Positions 3,248 through 53,628 of a stretch of 64,000 bases of DNA are shown here, one piece after another; the stretch's first letter is position 1; the number at the start of each line of letters is the position of its first letter. The notes beneath the pieces were generated by a model. That model saw only the letters and a program-made list of their open reading frames with translations, ran no database searches and had not been told where the DNA came from. Both the position numbers and the translations under genes were made by a program. The stretch is taken from assembly GCA_964355855.1 (NCBI GenBank), contig CAYHFD010000002.1, positions 419 through 64,418 of the forward strand, read 5' to 3'. This DNA comes from an uncultured Candidatus Saccharibacteria bacterium (lineage in GTDB: Bacteria > Patescibacteriota > Minisyncoccia > Phycocordibacterales > XYD1-FULL-46-19).

Positions 3248-3649
3248 ATGAAAAAGGGTTACAAAGAAAATATTGAAAATTTAACCATTGCCAATACTGA
3301 TTTCCGGCGGGTGGTCTATACGGGGGCGCACATGCAACTAGTTTTAATGTCACTTAAACCTGGTGAAGATATTGGTATGGAAATTCACGAGGACAACGAC
3401 CAGTTTTTTCGGTTTGATGCAGGAGAGGGCAAGGTAGTAATAAATGGTAATGAATATGAAGTGGCCGATGGTGACGCGGTAATAGTGCCAGCGGGGGCCG
3501 AACACAATGTCATTAACACTTCTCTTGACCAAGATTTAAAACTTTACATCATTTACGCTCCGTCTCACCACCAAGACGGAACTATTCGCGCGAATAAGGC
3601 TGAGGCCATTGCCGATAGTCCCGATTTTGATGGCCAGACGACGGAATAA
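3248..3649 (+). CDS. Cupin-domain protein
   Basis: 133-aa protein with a cupin beta-barrel pattern (G..H.H....E.F.V..G....G.....GD.V..P.G..H). Confidence 0.5.
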   Translation: MKKGYKENIENLTIANTDFRRVVYTGAHMQLVLMSLKPGEDIGMEIHEDNDQFFRFDAGEGKVVINGNEYEVADGDAVIVPAGAEHNVINTSLDQDLKLYIIYAPSHHQDGTIRANKAEAIADSPDFDGQTTE

Positions 3650-3663
3650 TTAAAATTATTTTT

Positions 3664-4482
3664 ATGATAGAAAAAACCGAATTTAATTCCGAGCTCGCCC
3701 CAGATCCACAAAAAGGATCTGTTGAAAAAAGAAAGGTTACTTATGAGAATGCTCTTGAGGCAGCTCGGCGGGCTTTGTCTTTTGGGGCTACTCCTGATAC
3801 ATGGGATGAACGTGAGTCTACTGAAAACCCAGAGTCAGGAAGTGTTGATGAACAAATGAATATTATTGAGAGATGGGTCGAAAGTCAGGATTTACTGGGG
3901 ACGATTGATACGATAGAAAAGGCGACAGCCTGGGCGATATATTGGCAGTTGTGGGTCAAAGCTGGTCTAACAGAACCATTTTATTTAAAAAATCAACTTG
4001 AACAAATAAATGATGAGATTTCTTTGTCATTAAATGCTGGAGTAGGTGAAGAAGTATTATCTATACTTGAAAATGTAAAGAAAAATATAGAAATACTTCT
4101 ACCGCCAGAAATGACTGTTTCGAAGAAGATTGAAAATAAAATACAAAGTGCAAAAGAATTGGCTAAAACAGGTAAGTTTAATGATGCCATAAGTTCTCTG
4201 TCTTCTATTTTAGTAAACCCGGCTTATAAAACCCACTTTAAATCGAAAAAGAATGTCCAAAAGGTTCAGGAAATAATTATTTTGCGGGGGGACATACAAA
4301 TAACAGAAGAAACCAAAGAGGCACAAATAAATACAGACAAAGGGGATTATGAGCGAGTTATTCAGCGCCTAAATTGGCTCATAGCAAAGCTTGATGGTGA
4401 AGGATATTTTGAGGTTAAATCGGATCAAAAAGAAAAATTAAAAAGTCTTTTAACTAGTGCTCAATCTCAGATAATAGGCTAG
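3664..4482 (+). CDS. Hypothetical protein (acidic, helical)
   Basis: 272-aa ORF with no recognisable motif. Confidence 0.4.
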   Translation: MIEKTEFNSELAPDPQKGSVEKRKVTYENALEAARRALSFGATPDTWDERESTENPESGSVDEQMNIIERWVESQDLLGTIDTIEKATAWAIYWQLWVKAGLTEPFYLKNQLEQINDEISLSLNAGVGEEVLSILENVKKNIEILLPPEMTVSKKIENKIQSAKELAKTGKFNDAISSLSSILVNPAYKTHFKSKKNVQKVQEIIILRGDIQITEETKEAQINTDKGDYERVIQRLNWLIAKLDGEGYFEVKSDQKEKLKSLLTSAQSQIIG

Positions 4483-5359: not shown

Positions 5360-5764
5360 TATTTTTATGGTCTAGTTTTTGTTTTTGGCTTACTTTTAAA
5401 CATTCTTTGGGAAAATCTGCACTCGATTTTGTATGTTCACTACCAAGGCGAAATAATTTCGGAGGCTATTTTATTAAAGGCCTCATTTTTTGACGCACTT
5501 ATAATTTGTCTATTGTGGGGCCTGGCTCATAAAATTTCTGCTCGCTACCAAGTGGAAATTTTTGTGGCCGGTAGTTTGCTTTTCGCCGTAATTTTAGAAA
5601 TATGGGCTTTGGGGACAAATCGCTGGGCCTATAATGAACTGATGCCCTTGGTCCCAATACTAAAAGTGGGCTGGTCGCCCACGGTTCAACTGGCGGTGAC
5701 GGGTACTTTGTCTTTTGGGGTGACTCGGGCTACTATTAAACTCTATGTTAATAAGTTTAAATAA
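5342..5764 (+). CDS. Hypothetical membrane protein
   Basis: Hydrophobic 140-aa ORF. Confidence 0.35.
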   Translation: MFKSGHYFYGLVFVFGLLLNILWENLHSILYVHYQGEIISEAILLKASFFDALIICLLWGLAHKISARYQVEIFVAGSLLFAVILEIWALGTNRWAYNELMPLVPILKVGWSPTVQLAVTGTLSFGVTRATIKLYVNKFK

Positions 5765-5880
5765 TTTAACTAAAGGCCAATGGGCGGTATTTATTATGGG
5801 TGTAGTTTCGATTTGTGGCTTTGTCATTTACTTTTTAAAGATTGGGAACAATGAGTTTATTTGGTATATCGGGGTAATGA

Positions 5881-8903: not shown

Positions 8904-10070
8904 TTAGTTAGTCGTATTTTTTCTGACTGCTTCGGCCACCATTTGAGCTACTTTTTTGTCAAAAGGCGAAGGGATTATTTCTTCGGCGGTGGGGTTAGCT
9001 ACACAATCGGCAATGGCCTGCGCCGCGGCAATTTTCATTTCCTCGGTTACTTTTTTAGCACCACTATCAAACAATCCGCGAAAAATTCCCGGAAAAGCGA
9101 GGACATTGTTGACTTGATTGGGAAAATCGCTTCGGCCAGTGGCTACCACATAAGCCCCGGCCTCTTTGGCTATATCAGGCATAATTTCAGGGGTAGGGTT
9201 GGCCATCGCAAACACTATCGCCTTGGGGGCCATCGATTTCACCATATCAGCCGTGACGGTGTTTGGCCCGGAAACACCAATCAAAATATCGGCTTTTTTT
9301 ATAACTTCGGCTAGATTAGTGGGACAGTTGGTGGCGCAAGTGGTGGTCGTGCTTGGAAAATCTTTAATTATTGCCAATTTAGCTTCGTTTAAATCGGTTC
9401 GATGATTACAAACTAAACCTTTAGAGTCGACCAAAGCATAATTTTTCAGGCCAGCCCGGTAGAGAAGTTTAGTAATGGCGATACCGGCCGCGCCAGCGCC
9501 GGCAATAACTGCTCGCACCTCACTAATATTTTTTTCTACCACTTTCAAAGCATTGGTCAAAGCCGCTAGTACGACAATGGCTGTTCCATGCTGGTCGTCG
9601 TGAAAAACGGGAATGGGTAAGATTTGTTTCAGCCGTTCCTCGATTTCAAAACAACGCGGGGCCGAAATGTCTTCCAAATTTATTCCACCAAAGGATGGGG
9701 CAATAGCGGTAATAGCCTTAATAATTTCTTCGGTGTCTTGAGTGGCCAGGCATATTGGCACGGCATCGACACCACCAAACTCTTTAAACAAAATGGCCTT
9801 GCCCTCCATCACGGGCATCGCGGCTTCGGGGCCAATATTGCCAAGTCCGAGTACGGCCGAGCCGTCGGTGATTATCGCCACCGTGTTACCGACATTGGTA
9901 TAGGTTGTCAGTTTGGTTTTGTCTTCAGCGATAGCGATGCAGACCGTGGCCACACCCGGGGTGTAGGCTAAACTCAAATCTTCTCGCGTATTGAGCGGAA
10001 CTTTTACTTTAGTTTCTAGTTTGCCACGATATTTTTTATGTAATTCAAGGGAAGTGTCGCCAATTTCCAT
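8904..10070 (-). CDS. NAD(P)-dependent malic enzyme (short form)
   Basis: Malic-enzyme fold with a Rossmann GAGAAG motif ([11 protein letters not shown]) and the ...[11 protein letters not shown]... motif. Confidence 0.8.
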
Positions 10071-10212
10071 AAGGGCAGTTTGATTAGTTGTTTAATAACT
10101 GTATTCTAACCCATCTCTTGACCAATCCGAAGGCCGAGTCCACTGGTTGACTTTTGGGGCAGATTTGGTAATATTAGTAGGTGCCCCGCGGGGCTTTTTT
10201 AATACCAAAAAT

Positions 10213-10392
10213 ATGTCATTCATTGATTATTTAAAATCAACCAAAGCCGAGCTAAGACATGTCAACTGGCCAACCAGACGGGAGGCGGTAGTTTTTACTC
10301 TGATTGTGATAGTAATATCAATTGTCGTTGGAGCTTATTTGGGCGTTTTGGATTTTGTTTTTACTTCGATTATTAAAACTTTCATCATTTAA
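10213..10392 (+). CDS. secE: Preprotein translocase subunit SecE
   Basis: ~60-aa single-TM protein, MSFIDYLKSTKAELRHVNWPTRRE..., immediately upstream of nusG. Confidence 0.7.
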   Translation: MSFIDYLKSTKAELRHVNWPTRREAVVFTLIVIVISIVVGAYLGVLDFVFTSIIKTFII

Positions 10393-11099: not shown

Positions 11100-11525
11100 A
11101 TGGCAGATAAAAAGATAATAAAAAAGGTTAAACTACAAATCCCAGCCGGGGCGGCTAACCCAGCGCCACCAGTGGGGCCAGCCCTTGGTCAAGCGGGGGT
11201 TAATATTGGGGAGTTTGTGAACCAATTTAACAGCCGAACCCAGGAGATGCGCGGGGATATTATTCCGGTGGAGATTTCAGTTTATGAAGACCGCAGTTTT
11301 GATTTTATTTTAAAGACTCCCCCAGCTTCGCGTCTGATTTTAAAGGCGATTGGGACCGATAAGGGTTCCGGTAAAAATATCATTAAAAAGGCTGGCACTA
11401 TTACCAAAGCGCAAGTCAAAGAGATTGCTGAGAAAAAAATGGTTGACTTGAATGCCCATGACCTTAATGCAGCCATGAAAACCATTGAAGGAACGGCGCG
11501 GAGCATGGGGGTGGACGTGAAATAG
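11100..11525 (+). CDS. rplK: Ribosomal protein L11
   Basis: [29 protein letters not shown] is the L11 signature. Confidence 0.9.
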
Positions 11526-11693
11526 GAAACGTTCACCGGCCGGAGGCTGACGAGCCGAGGCGGGCCCGCGCAACTTTTCAGCAGAAAAGTATGGGTGGGT
11601 GGAAGTGAAATAGAAATGGGCTAAACCCCAACCCATATTTTTCTGCTGAGAAATATGGGTGGGTCGAAGTCAAATAAATATAAATTTTCAAGA

Positions 11694-11724
11694 AAAAAGC
11701 GCCTAGGTTAGGCGCTTTTTTCTT
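11694..11724 (+). terminator. Rho-independent terminator after rplK, preceded by a direct/inverted repeat region (11580-11680)
   Basis: aaaaaagcgcctaggttaggcgcttttttctt. Confidence 0.7.
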
Positions 11725-11786
11725 GGATATGTTTGTGGTTTCTTGTCAACCGTTTACCATCATTGTCACTAGGGTATAATGTTTGC

Positions 11787-12296
11787 ATGAGTGAAAATTC
11801 TAACCCTAATCAAGAAAGATATATTCGTCCAAGCTGGGACGAGTATTTTTTGAAAATTATGGAGGTGGTGGGTAGTCGGGGAACTTGTGACCGGGGGCGT
11901 TCGGGCTGTGTTATTGTTAAAGACAAAAGAATTCTTTCAACGGGTTATGTAGGCTCGCCCATTGGCTTGCCCCATTGTGATGAAGTGGGACACGAAATGC
12001 ATACGGTGACGAGCGAGGATGGTAAGGAATCAAGACACTGTATTCGAACCACCCATGCTGAACAAAATGCGATTGTGCAAGCGGCGCGGATTGGGGTGCC
12101 TCTGGCCGACGCGGTTTTGTATTGCAATATGACTCCCTGTTATGTCTGTGCCAAAATGATTATCAACGCTGGTGTTAAAAGGGTGGTGGCCCGCAAGGAC
12201 TATCATATTGGTGCCCGGAGTAAGGAAATATTAAAAGAAGCTGGGGTGCAATACGAGTTGGTAAATAATGAAATCGAAAAGTATAACGATATTTAA
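11787..12296 (+). CDS. dCMP deaminase (cytidine/deoxycytidylate deaminase family)
   Basis: HAEQNA and PCYVCA zinc-binding motifs; start taken at MSENSNP within ORF 11733-12296. Confidence 0.75.
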   Translation: MSENSNPNQERYIRPSWDEYFLKIMEVVGSRGTCDRGRSGCVIVKDKRILSTGYVGSPIGLPHCDEVGHEMHTVTSEDGKESRHCIRTTHAEQNAIVQAARIGVPLADAVLYCNMTPCYVCAKMIINAGVKRVVARKDYHIGARSKEILKEAGVQYELVNNEIEKYNDI

Positions 12297-12298
12297 AT

Positions 12299-12931
12299 AT
12301 GGCTGTTATTACCAAAGCGGAAATTTTAGATAGAATTAAAAAGGGTGAAATTGGCTTTGAGCCCATGGTTGATATTTTTCAGTTACAACGACATGCGGTG
12401 GATTTGCGTTTAGGTTATATCTTTTCTTTACCACAAATTTGGCGGTTGTCGGTGCGGGGGCGCGAGGCTTTAAATATTGATTATACGCGTAAAATTGATG
12501 CGCGCCTGTTTGAAACCATCGAACTAAAAGCGGGGCAATATTTTGAACTGTTACCCCAAGAATATGTTTTAGTGTCGGTGTTAGAAAAAGTAAAATTGCC
12601 AGCTGACTTGATGGCCGTAATGTATCCACGGTCTTCGACCAACCGTAAAGGTTTGTCGGTGGATTTGACGGGGATTATTGATGCTGGTTATGAGGGATCA
12701 TTAACTATTCCGATTCGGAACAATACGACTTCCCAGGTCATTAGGCTTTACCCGGGCGAGCGCATTTGCCAGTTGGTTTTTGAAGAGTTATCGGCCAAAA
12801 TTACCGAGGGACGTAAAAGTAAGTATCATAAACAAAAAACCAGCATTTATCTTCCCGACAAGGAGGAAGAAATAAAACTAATCTCGGCTGGTAAAATTGA
12901 AACCTTAAAAAAACGTTACCCAATAAAATAA
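12299..12931 (+). CDS. dcd: dCTP deaminase / dUTPase-superfamily protein
   Basis: VDLRLG and GIIDAGYEG motifs typical of Dcd. Confidence 0.65.
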   Translation: MAVITKAEILDRIKKGEIGFEPMVDIFQLQRHAVDLRLGYIFSLPQIWRLSVRGREALNIDYTRKIDARLFETIELKAGQYFELLPQEYVLVSVLEKVKLPADLMAVMYPRSSTNRKGLSVDLTGIIDAGYEGSLTIPIRNNTTSQVIRLYPGERICQLVFEELSAKITEGRKSKYHKQKTSIYLPDKEEEIKLISAGKIETLKKRYPIK

Positions 12932-12936
12932 CCAAT

Positions 12937-14232
12937 ATGAAAACTTTTATTTATGACGAGTTTGGTCCCGAGGATACTGCGATGATGCAGGCTCTTTATT
13001 CACGAAGCGCGGCTAGTGTCGAAGAACATGCGGAAAAAGTGAAGAAGAGTGGTTCGGGAAAATTTATGGAACGATTTTATGTTGGTTATGGTCACGCTTC
13101 GATCGCGGACTGCGGTAGTACCACTATTTTTGTTGAAGGGGTTAGTATGTTGGTGGCCAAAGCATTGCAGGATTGGCCTTTATATTCGGGACAGGAAACT
13201 AGTTCGCGTTATATTGATTTTGCTAATCAAGAGATAGTGGACCCTCTAGGGACAGCTGAATCTAAAGCCATAATTAAAAATTGGTTGGATTTTTATGTTA
13301 ACAGTCGGGAACCACTAATTGTTTATTTAAAAAAACGATACCCGCGCCGGCCCGTTGAAGATGAAGCGGTTTATGACAAAGCCATTACTTCCCGTTCGTT
13401 TGATGTTTTGCGGGCGTTTTTGCCGGCCGGTGCGACCACTCAACTGTCGTGGCACACTAATTTACGCCAAGCGGCCGACAAGCTGGCGCTCCTTAAATAT
13501 TATCCACTGGAGGAAGTGAAAACCGTGGCCAAAAATATTCATGACAAACTGAAGGAAAAATATCCTAGCAGTTTTTCGCATAAGGAATATGAAGAGCAGG
13601 AAAAATACCGCCAGTCAACGGTGGAAAATTACACATTTTACAAAACCAATATTTGTAATCCTAACTTTGTTTATTCCACTACTATTAACCCAACCGTGCT
13701 TACCCAATACCAAGATGTTTTAAGTCGTCGACCAACCAAAACCAATTTACCTCATTTTCTGACCGAATTGGGGACAATCTCGTTTGAGTTTTTGCTAGAT
13801 TTTGGTTCCTTTCGTGATATCCAACGCCATCGCCATGGTGTTTGTCGGATGCCCCTGGTTACTACTAGTTGCGGGTTTAATGATTGGTATTTAAACCAGT
13901 TGCCAGACGACTTACGTCTTCAAGCTTTTGACCTTATCAAAAAACAAAGTGTGGCCATCGAGACTTTACCAACCACTGTCGAGATAAAGCAATACTATGT
14001 GGCAATGGGTTTTAATGTGTCATGCAAGGTGACTTATGGTTTACCGGCGACAGTTTACACCGTGGAGTTACGTTCGGGTAAGTTGGTGCACCCGTCGCTT
14101 AGACGAGTGGCCCACCAAATGCACTATGGTTTAAAAGCCTTGTTTCCAGATTTAGTTTTGCATTCTGATTTAGAACCAGACGACTGGGATGTTCGACGGG
14201 GATTACAAGATATTAAAGAAAAAACCAACTAA
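12937..14232 (+). CDS. ThyX-like flavin-dependent thymidylate synthase, tandem two-domain form (431 aa)
   Basis: The N-terminal half resembles a ThyX core with the S-RY motif (GHASIADCGS...YSGQETSSRY) but has DWPL in place of RHR. The C-terminal half carries FRDIQRHRH but lacks S-RY. It is flanked by dCMP/dCTP deaminases, glyA and tmk. Confidence 0.5.
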   Translation: MKTFIYDEFGPEDTAMMQALYSRSAASVEEHAEKVKKSGSGKFMERFYVGYGHASIADCGSTTIFVEGVSMLVAKALQDWPLYSGQETSSRYIDFANQEIVDPLGTAESKAIIKNWLDFYVNSREPLIVYLKKRYPRRPVEDEAVYDKAITSRSFDVLRAFLPAGATTQLSWHTNLRQAADKLALLKYYPLEEVKTVAKNIHDKLKEKYPSSFSHKEYEEQEKYRQSTVENYTFYKTNICNPNFVYSTTINPTVLTQYQDVLSRRPTKTNLPHFLTELGTISFEFLLDFGSFRDIQRHRHGVCRMPLVTTSCGFNDWYLNQLPDDLRLQAFDLIKKQSVAIETLPTTVEIKQYYVAMGFNVSCKVTYGLPATVYTVELRSGKLVHPSLRRVAHQMHYGLKALFPDLVLHSDLEPDDWDVRRGLQDIKEKTN

Positions 14233-14233
14233 A

Positions 14234-15400
14234 ATGAAAGACAAACAAATTCAAAAACTAATCGCCGCCGAAATCAAGCGTCAAAAAAAAGTGGTCAATC
14301 TGATTGCCTCGGAAAATTTTGTCTCCAAGGATGTTTTAGAGGCTCTCGGGTCGGAATTGACCAACAAATATGCCGAAGGCTACTCGGCCCTGCGCTATTA
14401 TGGGGGAAATGAAATTGTCGATAAAATTGAGGATTTATGCCAAGAGCGAGCATTAAAAGTTTTTAAATTATCTAAAAAAGATTGGCGGGTAAATGTTCAG
14501 GCTTTGTCTGGCTCGCCAGCTAACACGGCGGTGTATTTAGCTCTGGTGCCGATTGGGGAAAAAATAATGGGTATGACCTTAACCGATGGTGGACACCTTA
14601 CTCATGGCCATAAAGTCTCAATTACCGGCAAGGTTTGGCAACAGATTCCTTATGGAGTTAATTCCAAGACCGAAATGCTTGATTATGAGGAAATTGCTAA
14701 AATTGCCGAGAAAGAAAAACCTAAAATAATTGTGGCTGGCTTCACGGCTTATCCTCGCCAGATTGATTGGCCAAAGTTTCGAGCTATCGCTGATAGTTGT
14801 GGGGCCATTTTGATGGTGGACATGTCGCATATCGCTGGTCTTATTGCGGGCGGGGCCTATCCCAGCCCCTTTCCTTATGCCGATGTCGTGACCAGCACCA
14901 CGCATAAAACTTTGCGTGGCCCGCGCTCGGCCCTTATTTTTTCCAAAAAAGAATTAGCTGACAAAATAAATAAAGCCGTATTTCCGGGTTTGCAGGGCGG
15001 GCCACACTTAAATCAAATAGCGGCGGTGGCGGTGGCTTTGGGTGAAGCATCCACGCCGGCATTTAAAACATATGCCAAGCAGGTGGTCAAAAATGCCTCG
15101 GCGCTGGCTAAGGAATTATCTCGTCTGGGTTGGCGATTAGTGTCTGGTGGAACAGATTCCCATTTAATTTTGCTGGACACTTGGTTGGACGGTAAAGGGA
15201 TAGGTGGTAAAGATGCTAGTGACCGACTGGAAAAAGCGGGTATCATTGTCAATAAAAATACCATTCCGGGCGAAAAAAGAACGCCGGTCAATCCATCGGG
15301 AATTCGTCTTGGCACGGCCGCCGAAACAACTAGGGGTAAAAAAGAAAAAGATATGATTAAATTGGCTCAACGGATTGATAAGATTTTAAAGAAAAAATGA
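14234..15400 (+). CDS. glyA: Serine hydroxymethyltransferase
   Basis: LIASENFVS, TTHKTLRGPR and the PLP-lysine region; start at ATG 14234. Confidence 0.9.
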   Translation: MKDKQIQKLIAAEIKRQKKVVNLIASENFVSKDVLEALGSELTNKYAEGYSALRYYGGNEIVDKIEDLCQERALKVFKLSKKDWRVNVQALSGSPANTAVYLALVPIGEKIMGMTLTDGGHLTHGHKVSITGKVWQQIPYGVNSKTEMLDYEEIAKIAEKEKPKIIVAGFTAYPRQIDWPKFRAIADSCGAILMVDMSHIAGLIAGGAYPSPFPYADVVTSTTHKTLRGPRSALIFSKKELADKINKAVFPGLQGGPHLNQIAAVAVALGEASTPAFKTYAKQVVKNASALAKELSRLGWRLVSGGTDSHLILLDTWLDGKGIGGKDASDRLEKAGIIVNKNTIPGEKRTPVNPSGIRLGTAAETTRGKKEKDMIKLAQRIDKILKKK

Positions 15401-16137
15401 AAAAAGGAAAATTAATTGCTATTGATGGCATAGATGGTTCCGGCAAAGCAACACAAGTTAAACTTTTGGCCGAGCGGTTAAAAAAAGAAGGGTTTAAGGT
15501 AAAGGCCATCGATTTTCCTCGTTACTATGACAACTTTTTTGGTAAGTTAATCGGCGAATATCTTTCTGGTTTGTATGGTGATTTTACTGAAGTCGACCCA
15601 CGCATTGGTTCGTTGCTTTATGCGGCTGACCGTTTTGAGTCGAGTAAAGATATTAAAAAATGGCTCGATGATGGTTATATTGTTTTGTCTGATCGCTACA
15701 CTTCAGCTAATGAAATTCACCAAGGGGGTAAAATTTTTAACCAACAAGCTCGTCGAGAATTTTTAGTCTGGCTAGAAAAGATGGAATACGGTGTTTTCAA
15801 TATCCCTAAGCCCGACCTAACCATTTTGCTTGATGTGCCATTTGAGGTGAGTAAGCATTGGCTAGAAAATAAAATTACCAGACGAAGTAAAAAATATTTA
15901 AAAGGCCGGCGCGATGTGGCTGAAGATAATTTGCGATATTTAAAAACCTCGCGTGAATGTTCTTTGTGGCTAGCTATTCATAATAAGACCTGGGCCAAGA
16001 TCGAGTGTTGTAAAGGTATGGTTTGTATGTCACCAGATGAGGTTGGCCAAAAAGTATTTGAAATTGTTAAGAAAAAAATCAATCTCGCTTACTATGGAAA
16101 TAAAACTAAAAATAAAAAAATTAAATCCCGAGGCTAA
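15397..16137 (+). CDS. tmk: Thymidylate kinase
   Basis: P-loop IAIDGIDGSGK and DRY motif (LSDRY). Confidence 0.85.
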   Translation: MKKGKLIAIDGIDGSGKATQVKLLAERLKKEGFKVKAIDFPRYYDNFFGKLIGEYLSGLYGDFTEVDPRIGSLLYAADRFESSKDIKKWLDDGYIVLSDRYTSANEIHQGGKIFNQQARREFLVWLEKMEYGVFNIPKPDLTILLDVPFEVSKHWLENKITRRSKKYLKGRRDVAEDNLRYLKTSRECSLWLAIHNKTWAKIECCKGMVCMSPDEVGQKVFEIVKKKINLAYYGNKTKNKKIKSRG

Positions 16138-16180: not shown

Positions 16181-16208
16181 TTGACACGATATAACCGTTG
16201 TATATACT
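16181..16208 (+). promoter_or_regulatory. Putative promoter TTGACA-16-TATACT ending ~7 nt before the ATG of the antitoxin gene (near-leaderless); tandem gtttgaca repeats may act as an operator
   Basis: gtttgacagtttgacacgatataaccgttgtatatactatagtt then ATG at 16215. Confidence 0.4.
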
Positions 16209-16214
16209 ATAGTT

Positions 16215-16487
16215 ATGAAAACTATCATCAATATTAAAGCCGATAAGGAGATAAAGGAACAAGCGGTGAAAACCGCCAAAGCCATGGGTTTGCCCCTAAG
16301 CACGGTAGTCAACGCCTTTTTGCGACAATTTGTGGCCGAGCAGCAGGTGACTTTTTCTGTTCCGCTCGTGCCATCCAAAAAACTTGAACAAATTCTTAAA
16401 CAGGCGGAGAGGGAAACGAAAGACAGCGAAAATATCGTGGGGCCATTTGGTTCGGCTAGAGATATGATGAAAGCGCTAAGATCTTAA
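16215..16487 (+). CDS. RelB/DinJ-family antitoxin
   Basis: Pattern IKADKEIKEQAVKTAKAMGLPLSTVVNAFLRQFVAEQQV resembles DinJ, and the gene lies directly upstream of a RelE/YafQ-like gene. Confidence 0.65.
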   Translation: MKTIINIKADKEIKEQAVKTAKAMGLPLSTVVNAFLRQFVAEQQVTFSVPLVPSKKLEQILKQAERETKDSENIVGPFGSARDMMKALRS

Positions 16488-16494
16488 ATCTTCC

Positions 16495-16758
16495 ATGCCC
16501 CAGGTTTATTATCTCAAAAGTTTTAAGAAGCAGTTCAAGCGCTTACCGCCAAAGATTCAGGATAAATTTGGGGAAAAACTAGAAATTTTCATGACCGATT
16601 GCTCGGCCCCGATTCTTAATGACCATACTTTGTCTGGCCAGTGGATAAATCATCGTAGTATTAACATTACTGGCGATTATCGGGCGATTTATAAATTGGA
16701 AAAAGTCATCGCGATTTTTGTCGTCATCGGCAATCACGATGAACTTTACGGCAAATGA
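16495..16758 (+). CDS. RelE/YafQ-family type II toxin (mRNA interferase)
   Basis: 87-aa protein ...LSGQWINHRSINITGDYRAIYKLEKVIAIFVVIGNHDELY, a typical RelE/ParE fold sequence. Confidence 0.65.
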   Translation: MPQVYYLKSFKKQFKRLPPKIQDKFGEKLEIFMTDCSAPILNDHTLSGQWINHRSINITGDYRAIYKLEKVIAIFVVIGNHDELYGK

Positions 16759-16919
16759 TTCTGCTGTGTTATCACGAGGTTGAACCTCGTGGCGGAAAAA
16801 GTGAGTGAATTGTCTGAATCAAGTCATGGTGAAGGGCGCTTTGGGTCAACTGGTCGTTAGTCAAACTACTCCTCGTTAATGCCCTATACAGGGCCCTTTT
16901 TTGTGCTATATTTGACCTA

Positions 16920-48685: not shown

Positions 48686-49524
48686 TTCGTATATAATAGG
48701 CGATGTCAGATATGTTAAATAAAATAAACCATAAAACCAGGCGTAAGAAGTAGCGTGTATTTAGACTGTGCTACATTCTGCCGCCCGGAGGGCGGTTTAT
48801 TTTTTCAGAAAGGCTGGAACATTGAAAATTGAATCCTGTCACGGTATCGACTTTTCCGCCTATAGGATAGGCGGAAGGGGTCTTTTCAAATATCGGAGGC
48901 AGAATAGGTAGAAACATTGTGTTTTGAAAGTAAAGTTAGATAGCAATCAAAAAAGAAAGTGGTTTTTAAATTTCCTAATAGGAAATTAAGAGTATATGGT
49001 GGATGCCTTGACACAAAATGGCGATGAAGGACGCGGCTTGGCGGCGATACGCTTCGGGGAGGTGCCTAGCAACCTTTGATCCGGAGATGTCCGAATGGGG
49101 AAACCCGATTGAGCAAAGCTCAATTACTCGTTTTTTTACGAGAGCTAACCCAGGGAAGTGAAACATCTCAGTACCTGGAGGAATAGAGACTAAATGAACT
49201 TCCTAGTTTGGAGGTAAGTAGCGCAAGCTCCGTGCTTCCAAACTATGAGGTTCTTAGCATTCCCTTAGTAGCGGCGAGCGAACAGGGAGAAGCCCAAACC
49301 CATAAGTTTACTTGTGGGGGTTGTAAGGCACGAACGTAGATTTCTAGGGAAGTCAAAAAATATTTTGTTAGCCGAAGCTGCTGGGAAGCAGCGCCACAGA
49401 AGGTAACGGCCCTGTAGGCGAAAATAAAATATCTTCCTTGTTCGTGTTCTTGAGTACCTCGAGGAACGACAGCCTTGAGGGAATCCGCCGGAACTAACCG
49501 GCAAGGCTAAATACATTTTGTGAT

Positions 49525-49561
<37 letters not shown>

Positions 49562-51247
49562 CAGCCCGATAAGGGCGTTGAAATAGACCTGAAACCATAT
49601 ACTTACAAGGAGTGGGAGCCGAGCACTACAGTGTGCATTATTTTGTGAGTTGAAAAATGATTTGACCGAGCCGTCGATGAAATTGCCGCCCAAGGCGTGG
49701 CGATTTGCAAAGGGTTGAGTCACCAGGGATGAACCATAACTGTCGACGTTATCTCATCCCATCATTTTTCAGTTCACAATTTAAATTGTGCATAGTGTAG
49801 TGCTCGGTGACCGCGTGCCTATTGAAGAATGAGCCAACGAGTTTATGCGTACTGCAGGCTAAGCCCTTCTGGGGTGGAGCCACAGGGAAACCAAGTGTGA
49901 ATAGCGCATTTGTAGTCCGCATAAGACCCGAAGCCAGGTGAGCTTGCCATGGGCAGGATGAACCCCACAGAAATGTGGGGGGAGGTCCGAACCGGTTAGC
50001 CGTGCAATACTATCGGATGACCTGTGGTAGGGAGTGAAAAGCTAATCGAACCTGGTAATAGCTGGTTCTCTCCGAAATATCTTTAGGGGTAGCGTCAGAT
50101 GTTCCTTCTGGGGGTAGAGCACTGGAAGAGTCGAACAGGGAGAAATCTCGTCGATTCTATCAAACTCCGAATACCAGAAACTAAAAGTCTGGCAGTTAGA
50201 CTCCGGGCGCTAAGGTCCGGTGGTCGAAAGGGAAACAGCCCTGATCTCAATCTAAGGTCCCTAAATTCATGCTAAGTGCACTTAAGGAGGTGAAATTTCT
50301 CCGACAATGAGGAGGTTGGCTTAGAAGCAGCCATCCTTTAAAGAAAGCGTAATAGCTCACTCATTCAGAGATCTTGCGCCGCAAATAATCGGGGCTAAGC
50401 ATGGTACCGAAGGTGAGGATGTCATCTATTTTCGAATAGGTGGCGTGGTAGGAGAGCGTTCCAATCCGCGGTGAAGCAGTGTCGTGAGGCACTGTGGAGC
50501 GTTTGGAAGTGAGAATGTTGGCACAAGTAACCGCAAGGCAGGTGAGATCCCTGCCCGCCGAAAGATCAAGGTTTCCTTGGCAATGGTGATCAGCCAAGGG
50601 TTAGTCGGGCCTAAGCCGATGGTGAAAACCGCAGGCGATGGACACACGGTTAATATTCCGTGACTTCTGTAATGTGCGATGGGGAGACGGAGTGCAGTAT
50701 GTCAAGCGTATTATTGGATTTATGTTCGGGCCGTTAGGAAGTACTCTAGGTAAATCCGGAGTACATTATTCCAAGCGGAGCGAAAACGCGGTGGTCTCCA
50801 CCGTGAATTTGACAAAGCGCGCTTCCAAGAAAAGCCTCTAAGCTTCAACATTATAGAAACCGTACCGCAAACCGACACAGGTGATCAGGTCGAGAAGACC
50901 AAGGCGAACGGGTGATTGCTCCTCAAGGAACTCGGCAAAAAAGCGGCCGTAAGTTTGCAATAAGGCCTTCCTAACCCCGCGCAAGCGGGACGGACGCAGC
51001 TAAAGAATCCCTGGCGACTGTTTATCAAAAACACAGCTCCCTGCGAACTCGTAAGAGTATGTATAGGGGGTGACACCTGACCAATGCCCGAAGGTCAAAT
51101 AAGGTGGGTGTGCGCATCACACTGCGTGTGATACTGATATATCGATATATCAAAATTTCGAAATATCAGCATCGTGCTTGGCGTGATGCGTATGCTTGCT
51201 CTATAAGCCCGGGTGAATGTCGGCGATAACTATAATCGTCCTAAGGT

Positions 51248-51509
51248 TCCGTGTTCGATTTTAAAATCGAACACGGAACGGATTGGGGCGATGTATAGCG
51301 AGTGTGATAAACAGAAGACAAAATATACCAATCAAAAGCTACCTCAGCGCGCGGTAACGCGTGCATGATCCACATGGCACGAAGAGACTATACGCCATGC
51401 TCCCTAAAACATTTGCTTTGCAAATGTTCGGGCGAACATTTTGTTTACAAAATGTTTTAGCCAGCAAAAATTAGGGATGAAGATATAGTCCTTATGTGAG
51501 GAATATAAG
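51248..51509 (+). other. Intron-like insertion 1 in the 23S (262 nt, no ORF) at E. coli position L1931 in helix 69
   Basis: Flanks reconstitute CCTAAGGT|AGCGAAATTCC. The 5' exon ends in U, the insert ends in G, and the insert has internal palindromes. Confidence 0.6.
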
Positions 51510-52110
51510 AGCGAAATTCCTTGTCTGGTAAGTTCAGACGTGCACGAATGGTGTAACGACTGGGGAACTGTCTCGAGGAGTAGCCCGGTGAAAATGCAAT
51601 GGGGGTGAAGATGCCCTCTACCTGCAGCTAGACGAAAAGACCCCAGGAGCTTTACTGCAGCTTGATATTGAGCTTACGTTTTTACTGCGTAGCATAGGTG
51701 GGAGACTTTGAAGCGTCGCTTTCGGGTGATGTGGAGTCAACAGTGAAATACCACTCTGTAAAAATGTATGTTCTAACCACGGTGTAAACCATCGTGAGAC
51801 AGTATCTGGTAGGTAGTTTTAGTGGGGCGCTATCCTCCTAAAAAGTAACGGAGGAGTCTATTAAGGTCCTCTAGGCGCGAATGGAAACCGTGCCGATAGT
51901 GTAATGGCATAAGAGGGCTTGACTGCAAGACGTACATGTCAAGCAGATGCGAAAGCAGAGCATAGTGAACCGACGGTCCGCCTTAGAAACGGCCGAAGAT
52001 CAACGGATAAAAGCTACCCTGGGGATAACAGGCTGGTACCGCCCAAGCGTCCATAGCGACGGCGGTGTTCGGCACCTCGATGTCGGCTCATCTTATCCTG
52101 GGGCTGGAGA

Positions 52111-52143
<33 letters not shown>

Positions 52144-52183
52144 AAGATACGCGAGCTGGGTTCAAACCGTACTGAGACTAATT

Positions 52184-52743
52184 TTAAAAAATTGGTAGAA
52201 GTGCAGTTTGAATCCCTTCGAGTTTTTCGTTTATGAAATTAAGTATAGGAACCCCGCCGGCGCGTAAAGCTATGGCGGGTGAGACAACCATAATCACGGC
52301 GGCGTAATGTAGCAATATATTACGAAATGCTGACTTATATCGGTGAAACCCTATTTGACGCGGAAATATGCGGAACTAACGCAGACAAATGCGGAAAAGG
52401 GCAATACCGAGGGAAATCGTGAACTTTATTGAGGAAATTGATCTTTTTTTTGGGGTAGTGTAGTGGGCACATTTCTGGGTTTAATCCCAAGTAAGCTAAT
52501 GACAATCGGGCCTAAAATAGTTTAGATCTTTCAAGGTCTAAGCCGTACGGAAACCGTCACGTTGGCAAGCGAAAAAGAGCGAGTTCAACTTTCGCACCCC
52601 TTATGTTTTTGAAGCAATCGAGATGATTGCTTCTTCAATAAAGTTCACGATACCCGTAGAGACTGAACGTTAGCCAACCGGGCACATGAGAGTACCGGTT
52701 GAAGATACAGTCCGATGCACTTAGTAATAAGTGAAAACATGCG
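52184..52743 (+). other. Intron-like insertion 2 in the 23S (560 nt, no ORF) in the peptidyl-transferase region, at the I-CreI/I-CeuI-type homing site (~E. coli 2593-2597)
   Basis: Flanks reconstitute ...CCGTAC T|GAGACAGGTTGGTCTCCTATC. The 5' exon ends in U and the insert ends in G. Confidence 0.6.
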
Positions 52744-53518: not shown

Positions 53519-53628
53519 GTTTTGGCGGTTTGACGCGGTGGTCACACCTCTTACCATTCCGAACAGAGAAGTTAAGCACCGTAGTGGCGATGGTACTTGC
53601 AAAGGGAGAGTAGCTAGCCGCCAGAACA
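53519..53628 (+). rRNA. rrf: 5S rRNA
   Basis: tttggcggtttgacgcggtggtcacacctcttaccattccgaacagagaagttaagcaccgtagtggcgatggtacttgcaaagggagagtagctagccgccag. Confidence 0.85.

Follow-up and report, generated by a model that had tools for sequence, protein, structure and literature searches.

A predicted flavin-dependent thymidylate synthase with catalytic residues divided between two fused ThyX-fold domains in a patescibacterial operon

Introduction

Canonical ThyX, the flavin-dependent thymidylate synthase (FDTS), is a homotetramer, represented by TM0449 of Thermotoga maritima, Rv2754c of Mycobacterium tuberculosis, the Helicobacter pylori enzyme, and A674R of Paramecium bursaria chlorella virus 1 (PBCV-1), and is covered by the profiles PF02511 and TIGR02170. 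Its chain is a single domain of 190–260 amino acids (aa) with a contiguous RHRx7SxRY signature, and its tetramer has four equal active sites. Here we describe a ThyX-like protein of 431 aa encoded in a stretch of 64,000 nucleotides (nt) from an uncultured Candidatus Saccharibacteria bacterium (contig CAYHFD010000002.1 of assembly GCA_964355855.1, positions 419–64,418; this whole stretch is hereafter called the window). Both halves of the protein are predicted to share the fold of canonical ThyX, and the catalytic and ligand-binding residues are shared as well, as is the genomic context of serine hydroxymethyltransferase (SHMT), thymidylate kinase (Tmk), and enzymes producing deoxyuridine monophosphate (dUMP), so that the same chemistry is predicted. 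In contrast to the canonical enzyme, the protein has two domains in one chain, RHR being confined to domain 2 and SxRY to domain 1, and it is predicted to form a dimer with two live and two dead sites.

Each canonical active site is built by three subunits, as seen in the structures of the M. tuberculosis and H. pylori enzymes (PMC6514825). In the M. tuberculosis numbering, subunit A provides the RHR motif (R95–R97), which contacts the phosphates, the ribityl chain, and the isoalloxazine ring of flavin adenine dinucleotide (FAD), and R199, which contacts dUMP; subunit B provides two further contacts to the FAD phosphates, S71 and R190; and subunit C provides R87, Q103, S105, and R107 together with the lid residue Y108, forming the dUMP loop and the lid (PMC6514825). 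H69, close to S71, is the histidine that stacks on the flavin (PMC6514825, PMC11940539). The dUMP phosphate is contacted by R172, and N3/O2 of the uracil by R199, which corresponds to R174 of T. maritima ThyX. The T. maritima residues that the literature links to the thymidylate reaction are H53, R78, R80, S88, R90, Y91, and R174. In PBCV-1 ThyX, Q75 and R182 come from one monomer and S88 and Q89 from another, in agreement with a multi-subunit site.

Redistribution of motifs between tandemly duplicated copies is known from other enzymes, the closest analogy coming from nucleotide metabolism. The monomeric dUTPase of herpesviruses is a tandem duplication with its motifs redistributed between the two copies, and the change leads from a trimer to a monomer with one site. 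The evolutionary logic would be the same in the tandem ThyX-like protein, whereas the fold and the reaction are unrelated and the predicted change is from a tetramer to a dimer with two sites. Two further proteins with a ThyX fold were found among the fold matches described below. PolB of Streptomyces cacaoi (PDB 4p5a) methylates carbon 5 (C5) of uridine monophosphate (UMP) and dUMP, and demonstrates that the scaffold can shift its substrate; it is a single-domain protein of an antibiotic gene cluster, whereas the tandem protein belongs to a housekeeping operon for deoxythymidine monophosphate (dTMP) and keeps the dUMP-type residues. Thy1 of Thermus thermophilus (PDB 6j61) carries an extra C-terminal module which, judging from the title of the entry, is an appendage to a complete ThyX, whereas the second domain of the tandem protein holds essential residues.

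Results

Catalytic residues in the two halves

The initial annotation of the window, made from the letters of the DNA alone, had proposed a row of five genes (dCMP deaminase, dCTP deaminase (Dcd), the ThyX-like protein, SHMT, and Tmk) and had read the third product as a ThyX of two fused halves, each giving part of the active site. All five open reading frames (ORFs) are present and were confirmed by profile scans (Table 1). The motifs quoted for the ThyX-like protein are exact, and the losses of RHR and S-x-R-Y are complementary: the motif DWPLYSGQETSSRY of the N-terminal half (N-half) has D79-W80-P81 at the place of RHR, and FRDIQRHRH of the C-terminal half (C-half) contains the sole RHR of the protein. 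Neither half possesses the contiguous RHRx7S(xRY) signature within one domain. The reading as a shared site is supported by the fold matches and by the sorting of the residues according to subunit role, which are described below.

The residues of the N-half were mapped to those of M. tuberculosis ThyX using a HMMER alignment to 3gwc. The segment VAKALQDWPLYSGQETSSRY aligned column for column with RHRHFS(Y/F)SQLSQR(Y/F) of the ThyX structures from Corynebacterium glutamicum and M. tuberculosis, and E87, S89, R91, and Y92 correspond to Q103, S105, R107, and Y108, namely the dUMP loop and the lid provided by subunit C. Residues were tallied first in 106 diverse full-length relatives and later in a set of 164 sequences, 58 of them distinct viral ones; the following counts refer to the set of 164. 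S89 and R91 are conserved in all 164 sequences, E87 in 161, and Y92 in 153. At positions 79, 80, and 81, where RHR would be expected, D, W, and P were found in 136, 53, and 117 sequences, respectively. H53 and S55 correspond to H69 and S71 (conserved in 160 and 163 sequences, respectively), R159 corresponds to R172 (155 sequences), and N175-x-R177 corresponds to N188-x-R190. The position of the N-half resembling R199 (K187) is variable, with R in 50, L in 21, and K in 17 sequences.

The conservation pattern of the C-half is the reverse. R293 and R297 are present in all 164 sequences, R299 in 161, and H298 in 148 (Q in 15), while the positions matching GHxS, NxR, and the S-x-R-Y loop are variable. 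Downstream of the RHR motif, a segment containing R379, H385, and R389 (164, 164, and 162 sequences, respectively) probably matches R199 of M. tuberculosis or R174 of T. maritima ThyX together with the HAxxEIR helix; in the structural model, R379 lies at the C-terminal end of the helix past the last strand, as R199 does.

The residues of the A role are invariant in the C-half only and those of the B and C roles in the N-half only, and the positions that are not used drift freely. The full residue set of the three subunits is present only as a composite of both halves, the position of R87 being the exception, and the complementary split recurs in 164 of the 164 aligned relatives, whose identities go down to 25–30%. 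These alignments suggest a clean sorting, with the A role falling to the C-half and both other roles, B and C, to the N-half, and they also point to purifying selection on the family. An explanation of the motif pattern as a local oddity or a sequencing artefact was rejected, as the pattern is conserved family-wide.

A sub-group of relatives with 495–526 aa (P0250, P0185, P0133, P0127, P0339, and P0322) has an insert of ~60 aa past the first helices. Its members carry some of the following replacements: QRQR or QRNR for QRHR, S-x-R-A for S-x-R-Y, and G-E-E for G-Q-E. The sub-group may represent a branch with shifted function.

Fold of the two halves

The Pfam profile Thy1 matched the whole protein with 56 bits (E = 5.8e-15, residues 16–211; gathering cut-off, 24.8) and the N-half alone with 54.3 bits (1.9e-14), and profile–profile comparison of the N-half with the M. 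tuberculosis and C. glutamicum ThyX using hhalign gave a probability of 96.5% (E = 7.6e-10). The C-half has no match in PHROGs, and profiles built from 19 and 24 sequences found nothing among the PDB sequences except the match of the N-half. The relationship of the C-half to ThyX was judged from the predicted fold together with weak collinear similarity, not from strong sequence statistics.

An AlphaFold2 model of the full-length monomer was obtained with a predicted local distance difference test score (pLDDT) of 80 and a predicted template modelling score (pTM) of 0.82; residues 9–25, 39–59, and 84–89 have low pLDDT values. The succession of strands and helices occurs twice in the model, the order in the C-half matching that in the N-half, and the variable linker runs from the final helix of the N-half to the strand that opens the C-half. 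The pTM value indicates a defined packing of the two predicted halves. A Foldseek search of the full model against the PDB gave ThyX as the best matches (E = 1e-4). When the C-half alone (residues 226–431) was used, all 50 of the top 50 PDB matches were ThyX, with probabilities of 0.91–1.0. Based on the model, we conclude that the C-half is probably a ThyX-fold domain that has diverged past sequence detection. Its assignment to an unrelated family was rejected, since only ThyX was found among its fold matches; the N-half scores as Thy1, and neither half matched an unrelated family. The two halves are collinear with each other in hhalign (P = 0.013 with 164 sequences; insignificant with shallow alignments), and with this value at best, sequence-level proof of an internal duplication is not claimed.

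Predicted assembly and active sites

We consider it likely that the 431-aa protein is a flavin-dependent thymidylate synthase in which two fused ThyX-fold domains share out the catalytic residues, and that it works as a dimer with two live sites. In the proposed assembly, two fusion chains would pair to form a pseudo-tetramer mimicking the ThyX tetramer, with the two C-halves on one diagonal pair of the D2 positions and the two N-halves on the other. At each C-half, one N-half would supply the contacts to the FAD phosphates and the second N-half would supply the dUMP loop and lid, yielding two complete FAD/dUMP sites, each centred on a C-half. The two sites centred on the N-halves would be dead, as they would have neither RHR nor the uracil arginine and would obtain no B or C residues from the C-halves. 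The dTMP made at the live sites, from dUMP supplied by the adjacent deaminases and methylene-tetrahydrofolate (methylene-THF) supplied by the adjacent SHMT, would then be phosphorylated by Tmk. In a D2 tetramer, an A subunit draws its B and C partners from two separate chains. Only a dimer of the fusion fits the conservation, and two sites per dimer of two-domain chains are predicted. The pseudo-dimer of the initial annotation is supported as regards the split site; its detail needs revision, as a canonical site involves three subunits, which would require a dimer of the fusion with two of the four pseudo-sites live.

Several observations weigh against this reading. R177, which would contact FAD in the B role, is conserved in only 136 of the 164 sequences, and the N-half has no arginine at the position of R87, which belongs to the C role; by analogy with R74 of T. 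maritima ThyX, K75 may replace R87. The register in which R379 matches R199 is uncertain by 2 residues in the hhalign alignment. The sequence link between the C-half and canonical ThyX is weak: the hhalign alignment is collinear with P = 0.013 (164 sequences), and the C-half alone, cut in two ways, returned 0 Pfam families at E ≤ 10, so that a Thy1 match in each half was borne out for the N-half (54–56 bits against 24.8) and not for the C-half. The Foldseek matches of the C-half have E values of 1.7e-3 to 3e-2 and template modelling scores of 0.3–0.5, and they were obtained with a model of medium confidence (pLDDT, 68). The equivalog profile TIGR02170 (thyX) gave only 25.7 bits against a cut-off of 87.9 (E = 7.3e-6), over residues 31–214 only. 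In addition, the genome was seen through 64 kb of sequence, and another thymidylate synthase may lie elsewhere.

A further-reaching view can be taken, although it is rather unlikely: the protein would be an obligately asymmetric, half-of-sites ThyX and the main thymidylate synthase of the candidate phyla radiation (CPR)/Patescibacteria and of many giant viruses and jumbo phages, with its degenerate pockets perhaps repurposed. The dead pockets might then serve, for example, as a docking site for nicotinamide adenine dinucleotide phosphate (NADPH) or folate, or as an allosteric nucleotide site. Several invariant residues of the C-half have no canonical role (W317-Y318, H385, R389, and R421-G422) and would fit such repurposing. 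If this is true, the repurposed pockets would separate the half-reactions, which is unattainable for a symmetric tetramer.

Genomic linkage and function

Neighbouring genes were counted within ±6 kb of the ThyX-like gene in 82 related loci. dCMP deaminase was found in 56 loci, Tmk in 50, and SHMT in 26, and the ribosomal and transcription genes rplK and nusG were found in 40 and 35 loci, respectively. In P0039, P0076, P0093, and locus L002 (5784–7685), the ThyX-like protein is fused in frame behind dCMP deaminase (~630 aa). The cluster of locus L001 also contains nucleoside deoxyribosyltransferase and dUTPase. No other thymidylate synthase was found in the 82 loci besides a broken thyA in locus L051 (JAZDEZ010000024.1), where a chimeric ORF of 132 aa (5444–5842) lies directly upstream of the tandem ThyX-like gene. 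The first ~90 residues of this ORF are ThyA, with 61% identity to residues 1–94 of the Escherichia coli enzyme, and its end repeats exactly the last ~50 residues of the dCMP deaminase that the same locus encodes at 3624–4100; the ORF represents a thyA remnant or rearrangement, or possibly a chimera of the assembly. A query with E. coli ThyA had no match in the window, the L051 fragment being the sole match, and scans of the five operon proteins against Pfam and NCBIfam revealed no ThyA family.

Because the gene is linked to enzymes that make the substrate and use the product, and because the residues of the thymidylate reaction are kept, we infer that the most likely activity is the synthesis of dTMP from dUMP.

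Extent of the family

A word-indexed search found 3818 homologs, of which the best 120 are 62–84% identical apart from one 100% match. The named organisms among the best 120 are Patescibacteria metagenome-assembled genomes (MAGs), and several of the proteins are labelled 'FAD-dependent thymidylate synthase'. An exhaustive search with a profile of the C-half alone yielded representatives of 1134 clusters at 50% identity, nearly all of them 430–500 aa long and with the match at the C-terminus. Relatives are encoded in at least 581 GTDB species genomes, and the best 80 are all CPR MAGs, some of them mislabelled.

The same architecture and split motifs were found in 77 large IMG/VR contigs (L083–L159), including giant-virus MAGs, at identities of 25–57%. 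These relatives have no ribosomal-gene context, and many of the viral contigs are 100–380 kb long; a few of the viral loci have Dcd, dCMP deaminase, or Tmk close by. Cultured Vibrio jumbo phages also carry a tandem ThyX-like gene, with the motifs split in the same way. The protein QAX97196.1 of Vibrio phage vB_VmeM-Yong MS32 (L160, 3923–5305) is 32% identical over 96% of the query, is annotated as 'hypothetical protein', and has a Thy1 match in its N-half only; the homolog in the BONAISHI phage is annotated as 'thymidilate synthase-like protein'. The PHROGs family phrog_36506 'thymidylate synthase' (491 positions) matches residues 15–171 of the N-half, and for the 'thymidylate synthase' of the Microcystis phages Ma-LMM01 and MaMV the match covers just 36% of the query. 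A different second domain may be present in these long phage proteins.

Organization of the operon

The five genes are encoded in series on the plus strand (11787–16137, from the ORF list and profile scans), separated by 2, 5, and ~1 nt, with the last pair overlapping by 4 nt. From their sequences, dCMP deaminase would provide dUMP from dCMP, and SHMT would be the source of 5,10-methylene-THF. Tmk scores under the NCBIfam equivalog cut-offs. The SHMT ORF is listed from 14189, and an alternative ATG at 14234 leaves one base after the stop codon of the ThyX-like gene; this ATG is likely the true start, because the Pfam alignment begins there and it lies just past that stop codon.

Upstream of the operon lie secE, nusG, and rplK (encoding L11), and a terminator-like hairpin past rplK marks the upstream boundary. 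A promoter-like site follows, and another stands ahead of the gene downstream of tmk. On account of the hairpin and the flanking promoter-like sites, which are consensus matches only, the five genes look like a single transcription unit. The TATAAT of the first site ends 6 nt 5' of the ATG of dCMP deaminase (11775–11789) and leaves no room for a Shine–Dalgarno sequence. Because none fits there, the mRNA of the operon may be leaderless.

The genomic surroundings (secE-nusG-rplK upstream, argS downstream, and a 23S rRNA with ~450 extra nt) indicate a CPR/Patescibacteria genome. In the window (11100–11786), the hairpin and the dTMP operon come after rplK, and rplA (L1) does not; L002 has L1 behind L11. 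Many relatives carry the dTMP genes as an insertion directly behind nusG-rplK. The 23S rRNA is 3383 nt long compared with the 2925-nt model, with ~450 nt of insertions, and the 5S rRNA follows it at a distance of more than 1 kb. No 16S rRNA or tRNA gene was found in the window (ARAGORN, 0 tRNA).

Table 1. Features of the window around and within the tandem ThyX-like gene
Feature	Position	Strand	Evidence or remark
Terminator-like hairpin past rplK	11687–11727	+	19-bp stem, 7 G-C pairs, T-rich tail
Promoter-like site TTTACC-16-TATAAT	11753–11780	+	10 of 12 consensus positions
dCMP deaminase (ComEB-like)	11787–12296	+	PF00383, 7.5e-23; HAE...PCxxC zinc motif visible in translation
dCTP deaminase (Dcd), 210 aa	12299–12931	+	PF22769, 1.4e-34; TIGR02274, 115.9 bits (cut-off 92.8)
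Tandem ThyX-like protein, 431 aa	12937–14232	+	ORF; PF02511, 5.8e-15
N-half, residues 1–218	12937–13590	+	ThyX domain without RHR
G-H53-A-S55	13090–13101	+	Matches H69/S71 of M. tuberculosis ThyX
DWPLYSGQETSSRY, residues 79–92	13171–13212	+	N-half motif
R159-AFLP...N175-L-R177	13411–13470	+	Matches R172 and N188-x-R190 of M. tuberculosis ThyX
Linker, ~residues 219–243	13591–13665	+	Poorly conserved, indel-rich alignment columns
C-half, ~residues 244–431	13666–14229	+	Diverged ThyX-fold domain (predicted fold); no sequence-profile match
F-R293-D-I-Q-R297-H298-R299-H, residues 292–300	13810–13836	+	RHR motif of the C-half
E-L-R379-SGKLV-H385-PSL-R389	14065–14103	+	Putative match of R199 (M. tuberculosis)/R174 (T. 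maritima) and HAxxEIR helix
SHMT	14234–15400	+	PF00464, 7.6e-160; NF000586, 527 bits (cut-off 335)
dTMP kinase (Tmk)	15397–16137	+	PF02223, 1.4e-19; start overlaps SHMT stop
Second promoter-like site	16181–16208		Ahead of the gene downstream of tmk
RelB-family antitoxin	16215–16487		Between tmk and argS
YafQ/ParE-family toxin	16495–16758		Between tmk and argS
dUTPase 3' remnant	16774–16860		Directly past the toxin stop
23S rRNA	48976–52358		
5S rRNA	53521–53626		

The route from deoxycytidine to dTDP had been called complete in the initial annotation. Four of the five steps of this route are encoded in the operon (deamination of dCMP or dCTP, methylation, one-carbon supply, and dTMP phosphorylation), but no intact dUTPase exists in the window, where only a 3' remnant was found. 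The remnant comprises the last ~29 codons (...VAEKVSELSESSHGEGRFGSTGR*) and shares 52% identity with the intact dut located ahead of argS in L001. A toxin–antitoxin pair occupies the space between tmk and argS (Table 1), and this cassette seems to have displaced most of dut, leaving the operon without a nearby dUTPase. dUMP can still be obtained via dCMP deaminase, or via Dcd if the latter is a bifunctional deaminase-dUTPase. In L002, a protein of 407 aa (8992–10215) consists of Tmk fused to a dUTPase/DCD-like domain.

Discussion

The split active site could be explained in other ways than by a shared thymidylate synthase. The ThyX scaffold may have taken up other C5 chemistry or another substrate, such as hydroxymethylation of dUMP or dCMP, PolB-like methylation of UMP, or a different flavin- or folate-dependent transfer, and the split would then reflect neofunctionalisation. 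The score under the TIGR02170 cut-off is in line with this idea, as are the presence of PolB among the fold matches, the QRQR and S-x-R-A sub-variants, the invariant C-half residues H385, R389, and R421 with no assigned role, and the occurrence of relatives among jumbo phages and in giant-virus bins, a setting in which base modification is frequent. However, the residues corresponding to all seven of the T. maritima residues tied to the thymidylate reaction are kept as a set, and the two arginines that read O4 and N3/O2 of the uracil show no variation. The ThyX-like gene is fused or adjacent to that of dCMP deaminase, has Tmk downstream, and stands in a housekeeping setting beside nusG-rplK, and the only further thymidylate synthase in the 82 loci is the broken thyA. 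We therefore regard other chemistry as unlikely, and the dUMP/dCMP-modifying activity that the initial annotation had offered as an alternative is not favoured by the retention of the uracil-specific and catalytic residues and by the linkage to dCMP deaminase and Tmk.

The same residues bear on the question of how many halves and chains take part in a site. A monomer might hold a single re-engineered site between its own two halves and form no pseudo-tetramer. The confident full-length model, in which the halves pack together, is compatible with such a monomer, and the dUTPases offer a precedent for the collapse of an oligomer to a monomer. Yet the B and C roles come from different canonical subunits and both sets are conserved in the single N-half, of which one copy could hardly serve both roles unless the geometry were radically changed; we consider the monomer quite improbable. 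It is highly improbable, in our view, that only one half matters, with the C-half being a structural or regulatory appendage to sites formed by N-halves alone, or the whole being a non-catalytic protein that binds nucleotide or flavin. The Thy1 signal does come from the N-half alone, the C-half is invisible to sequence profiles, and the monomer model has the low-pLDDT stretches mentioned above. Against this, the conservation of R293, R297, R299, R379, and H385 in the C-half exceeds that of most N-half positions, the conserved C-half residues are exactly those absent from the N-half, and a site built from N-halves only would have no RHR to hold FAD, given the known roles of these residues (PMC6514825). 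The dimeric, residue-sharing thymidylate synthase seems to us the likely reading.

Databases already label the protein as ThyX, and it is the split architecture that is apparently undescribed. Searches of the PDB revealed no solved structure with a split two-domain architecture, and a literature search, with most subscription journals outside its scope, found no paper on a tandem or split ThyX. A possible described member of the family is the chlamydial enzyme. ThyX of Chlamydia trachomatis is about twice the usual length and is an active flavin-dependent thymidylate synthase. Chlamydial ThyX is reported to be so divergent that it was excluded from phylogenies (PMC6171736). It could be a member of this family, in which case activity would already have been demonstrated for one member, or of a similar tandem family. 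A search for Chlamydiae-type organisms seeded with the 524-aa P0250 returned only metagenomic proteins.

ThyX is a long-studied antibacterial target, and its analysis is complicated by the fact that three copies of one chain contribute to each site, so that any mutation hits three roles. The natural fusion would be a ready-made asymmetric ThyX, in which one domain has the A role and its partner domain has the B and C roles. Single substitutions in the fusion would touch one role only, and the FAD stoichiometry, half-site behaviour, and complementation between chains would become directly testable. Recognition of the family should improve annotation, and the cultivable Vibrio jumbo phages offer tractable experimental systems. 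Nucleotide metabolism would also gain a further case in which an interface enzyme, once duplicated and fused, has its active-site residues shared out between the copies. In the CPR, a very large share of bacterial diversity, the tandem family seems to provide the usual thymidylate synthase. While the predicted function is the expected one, the architecture is widespread and would help experiments to tell apart the roles that the three subunits have in ThyX catalysis.

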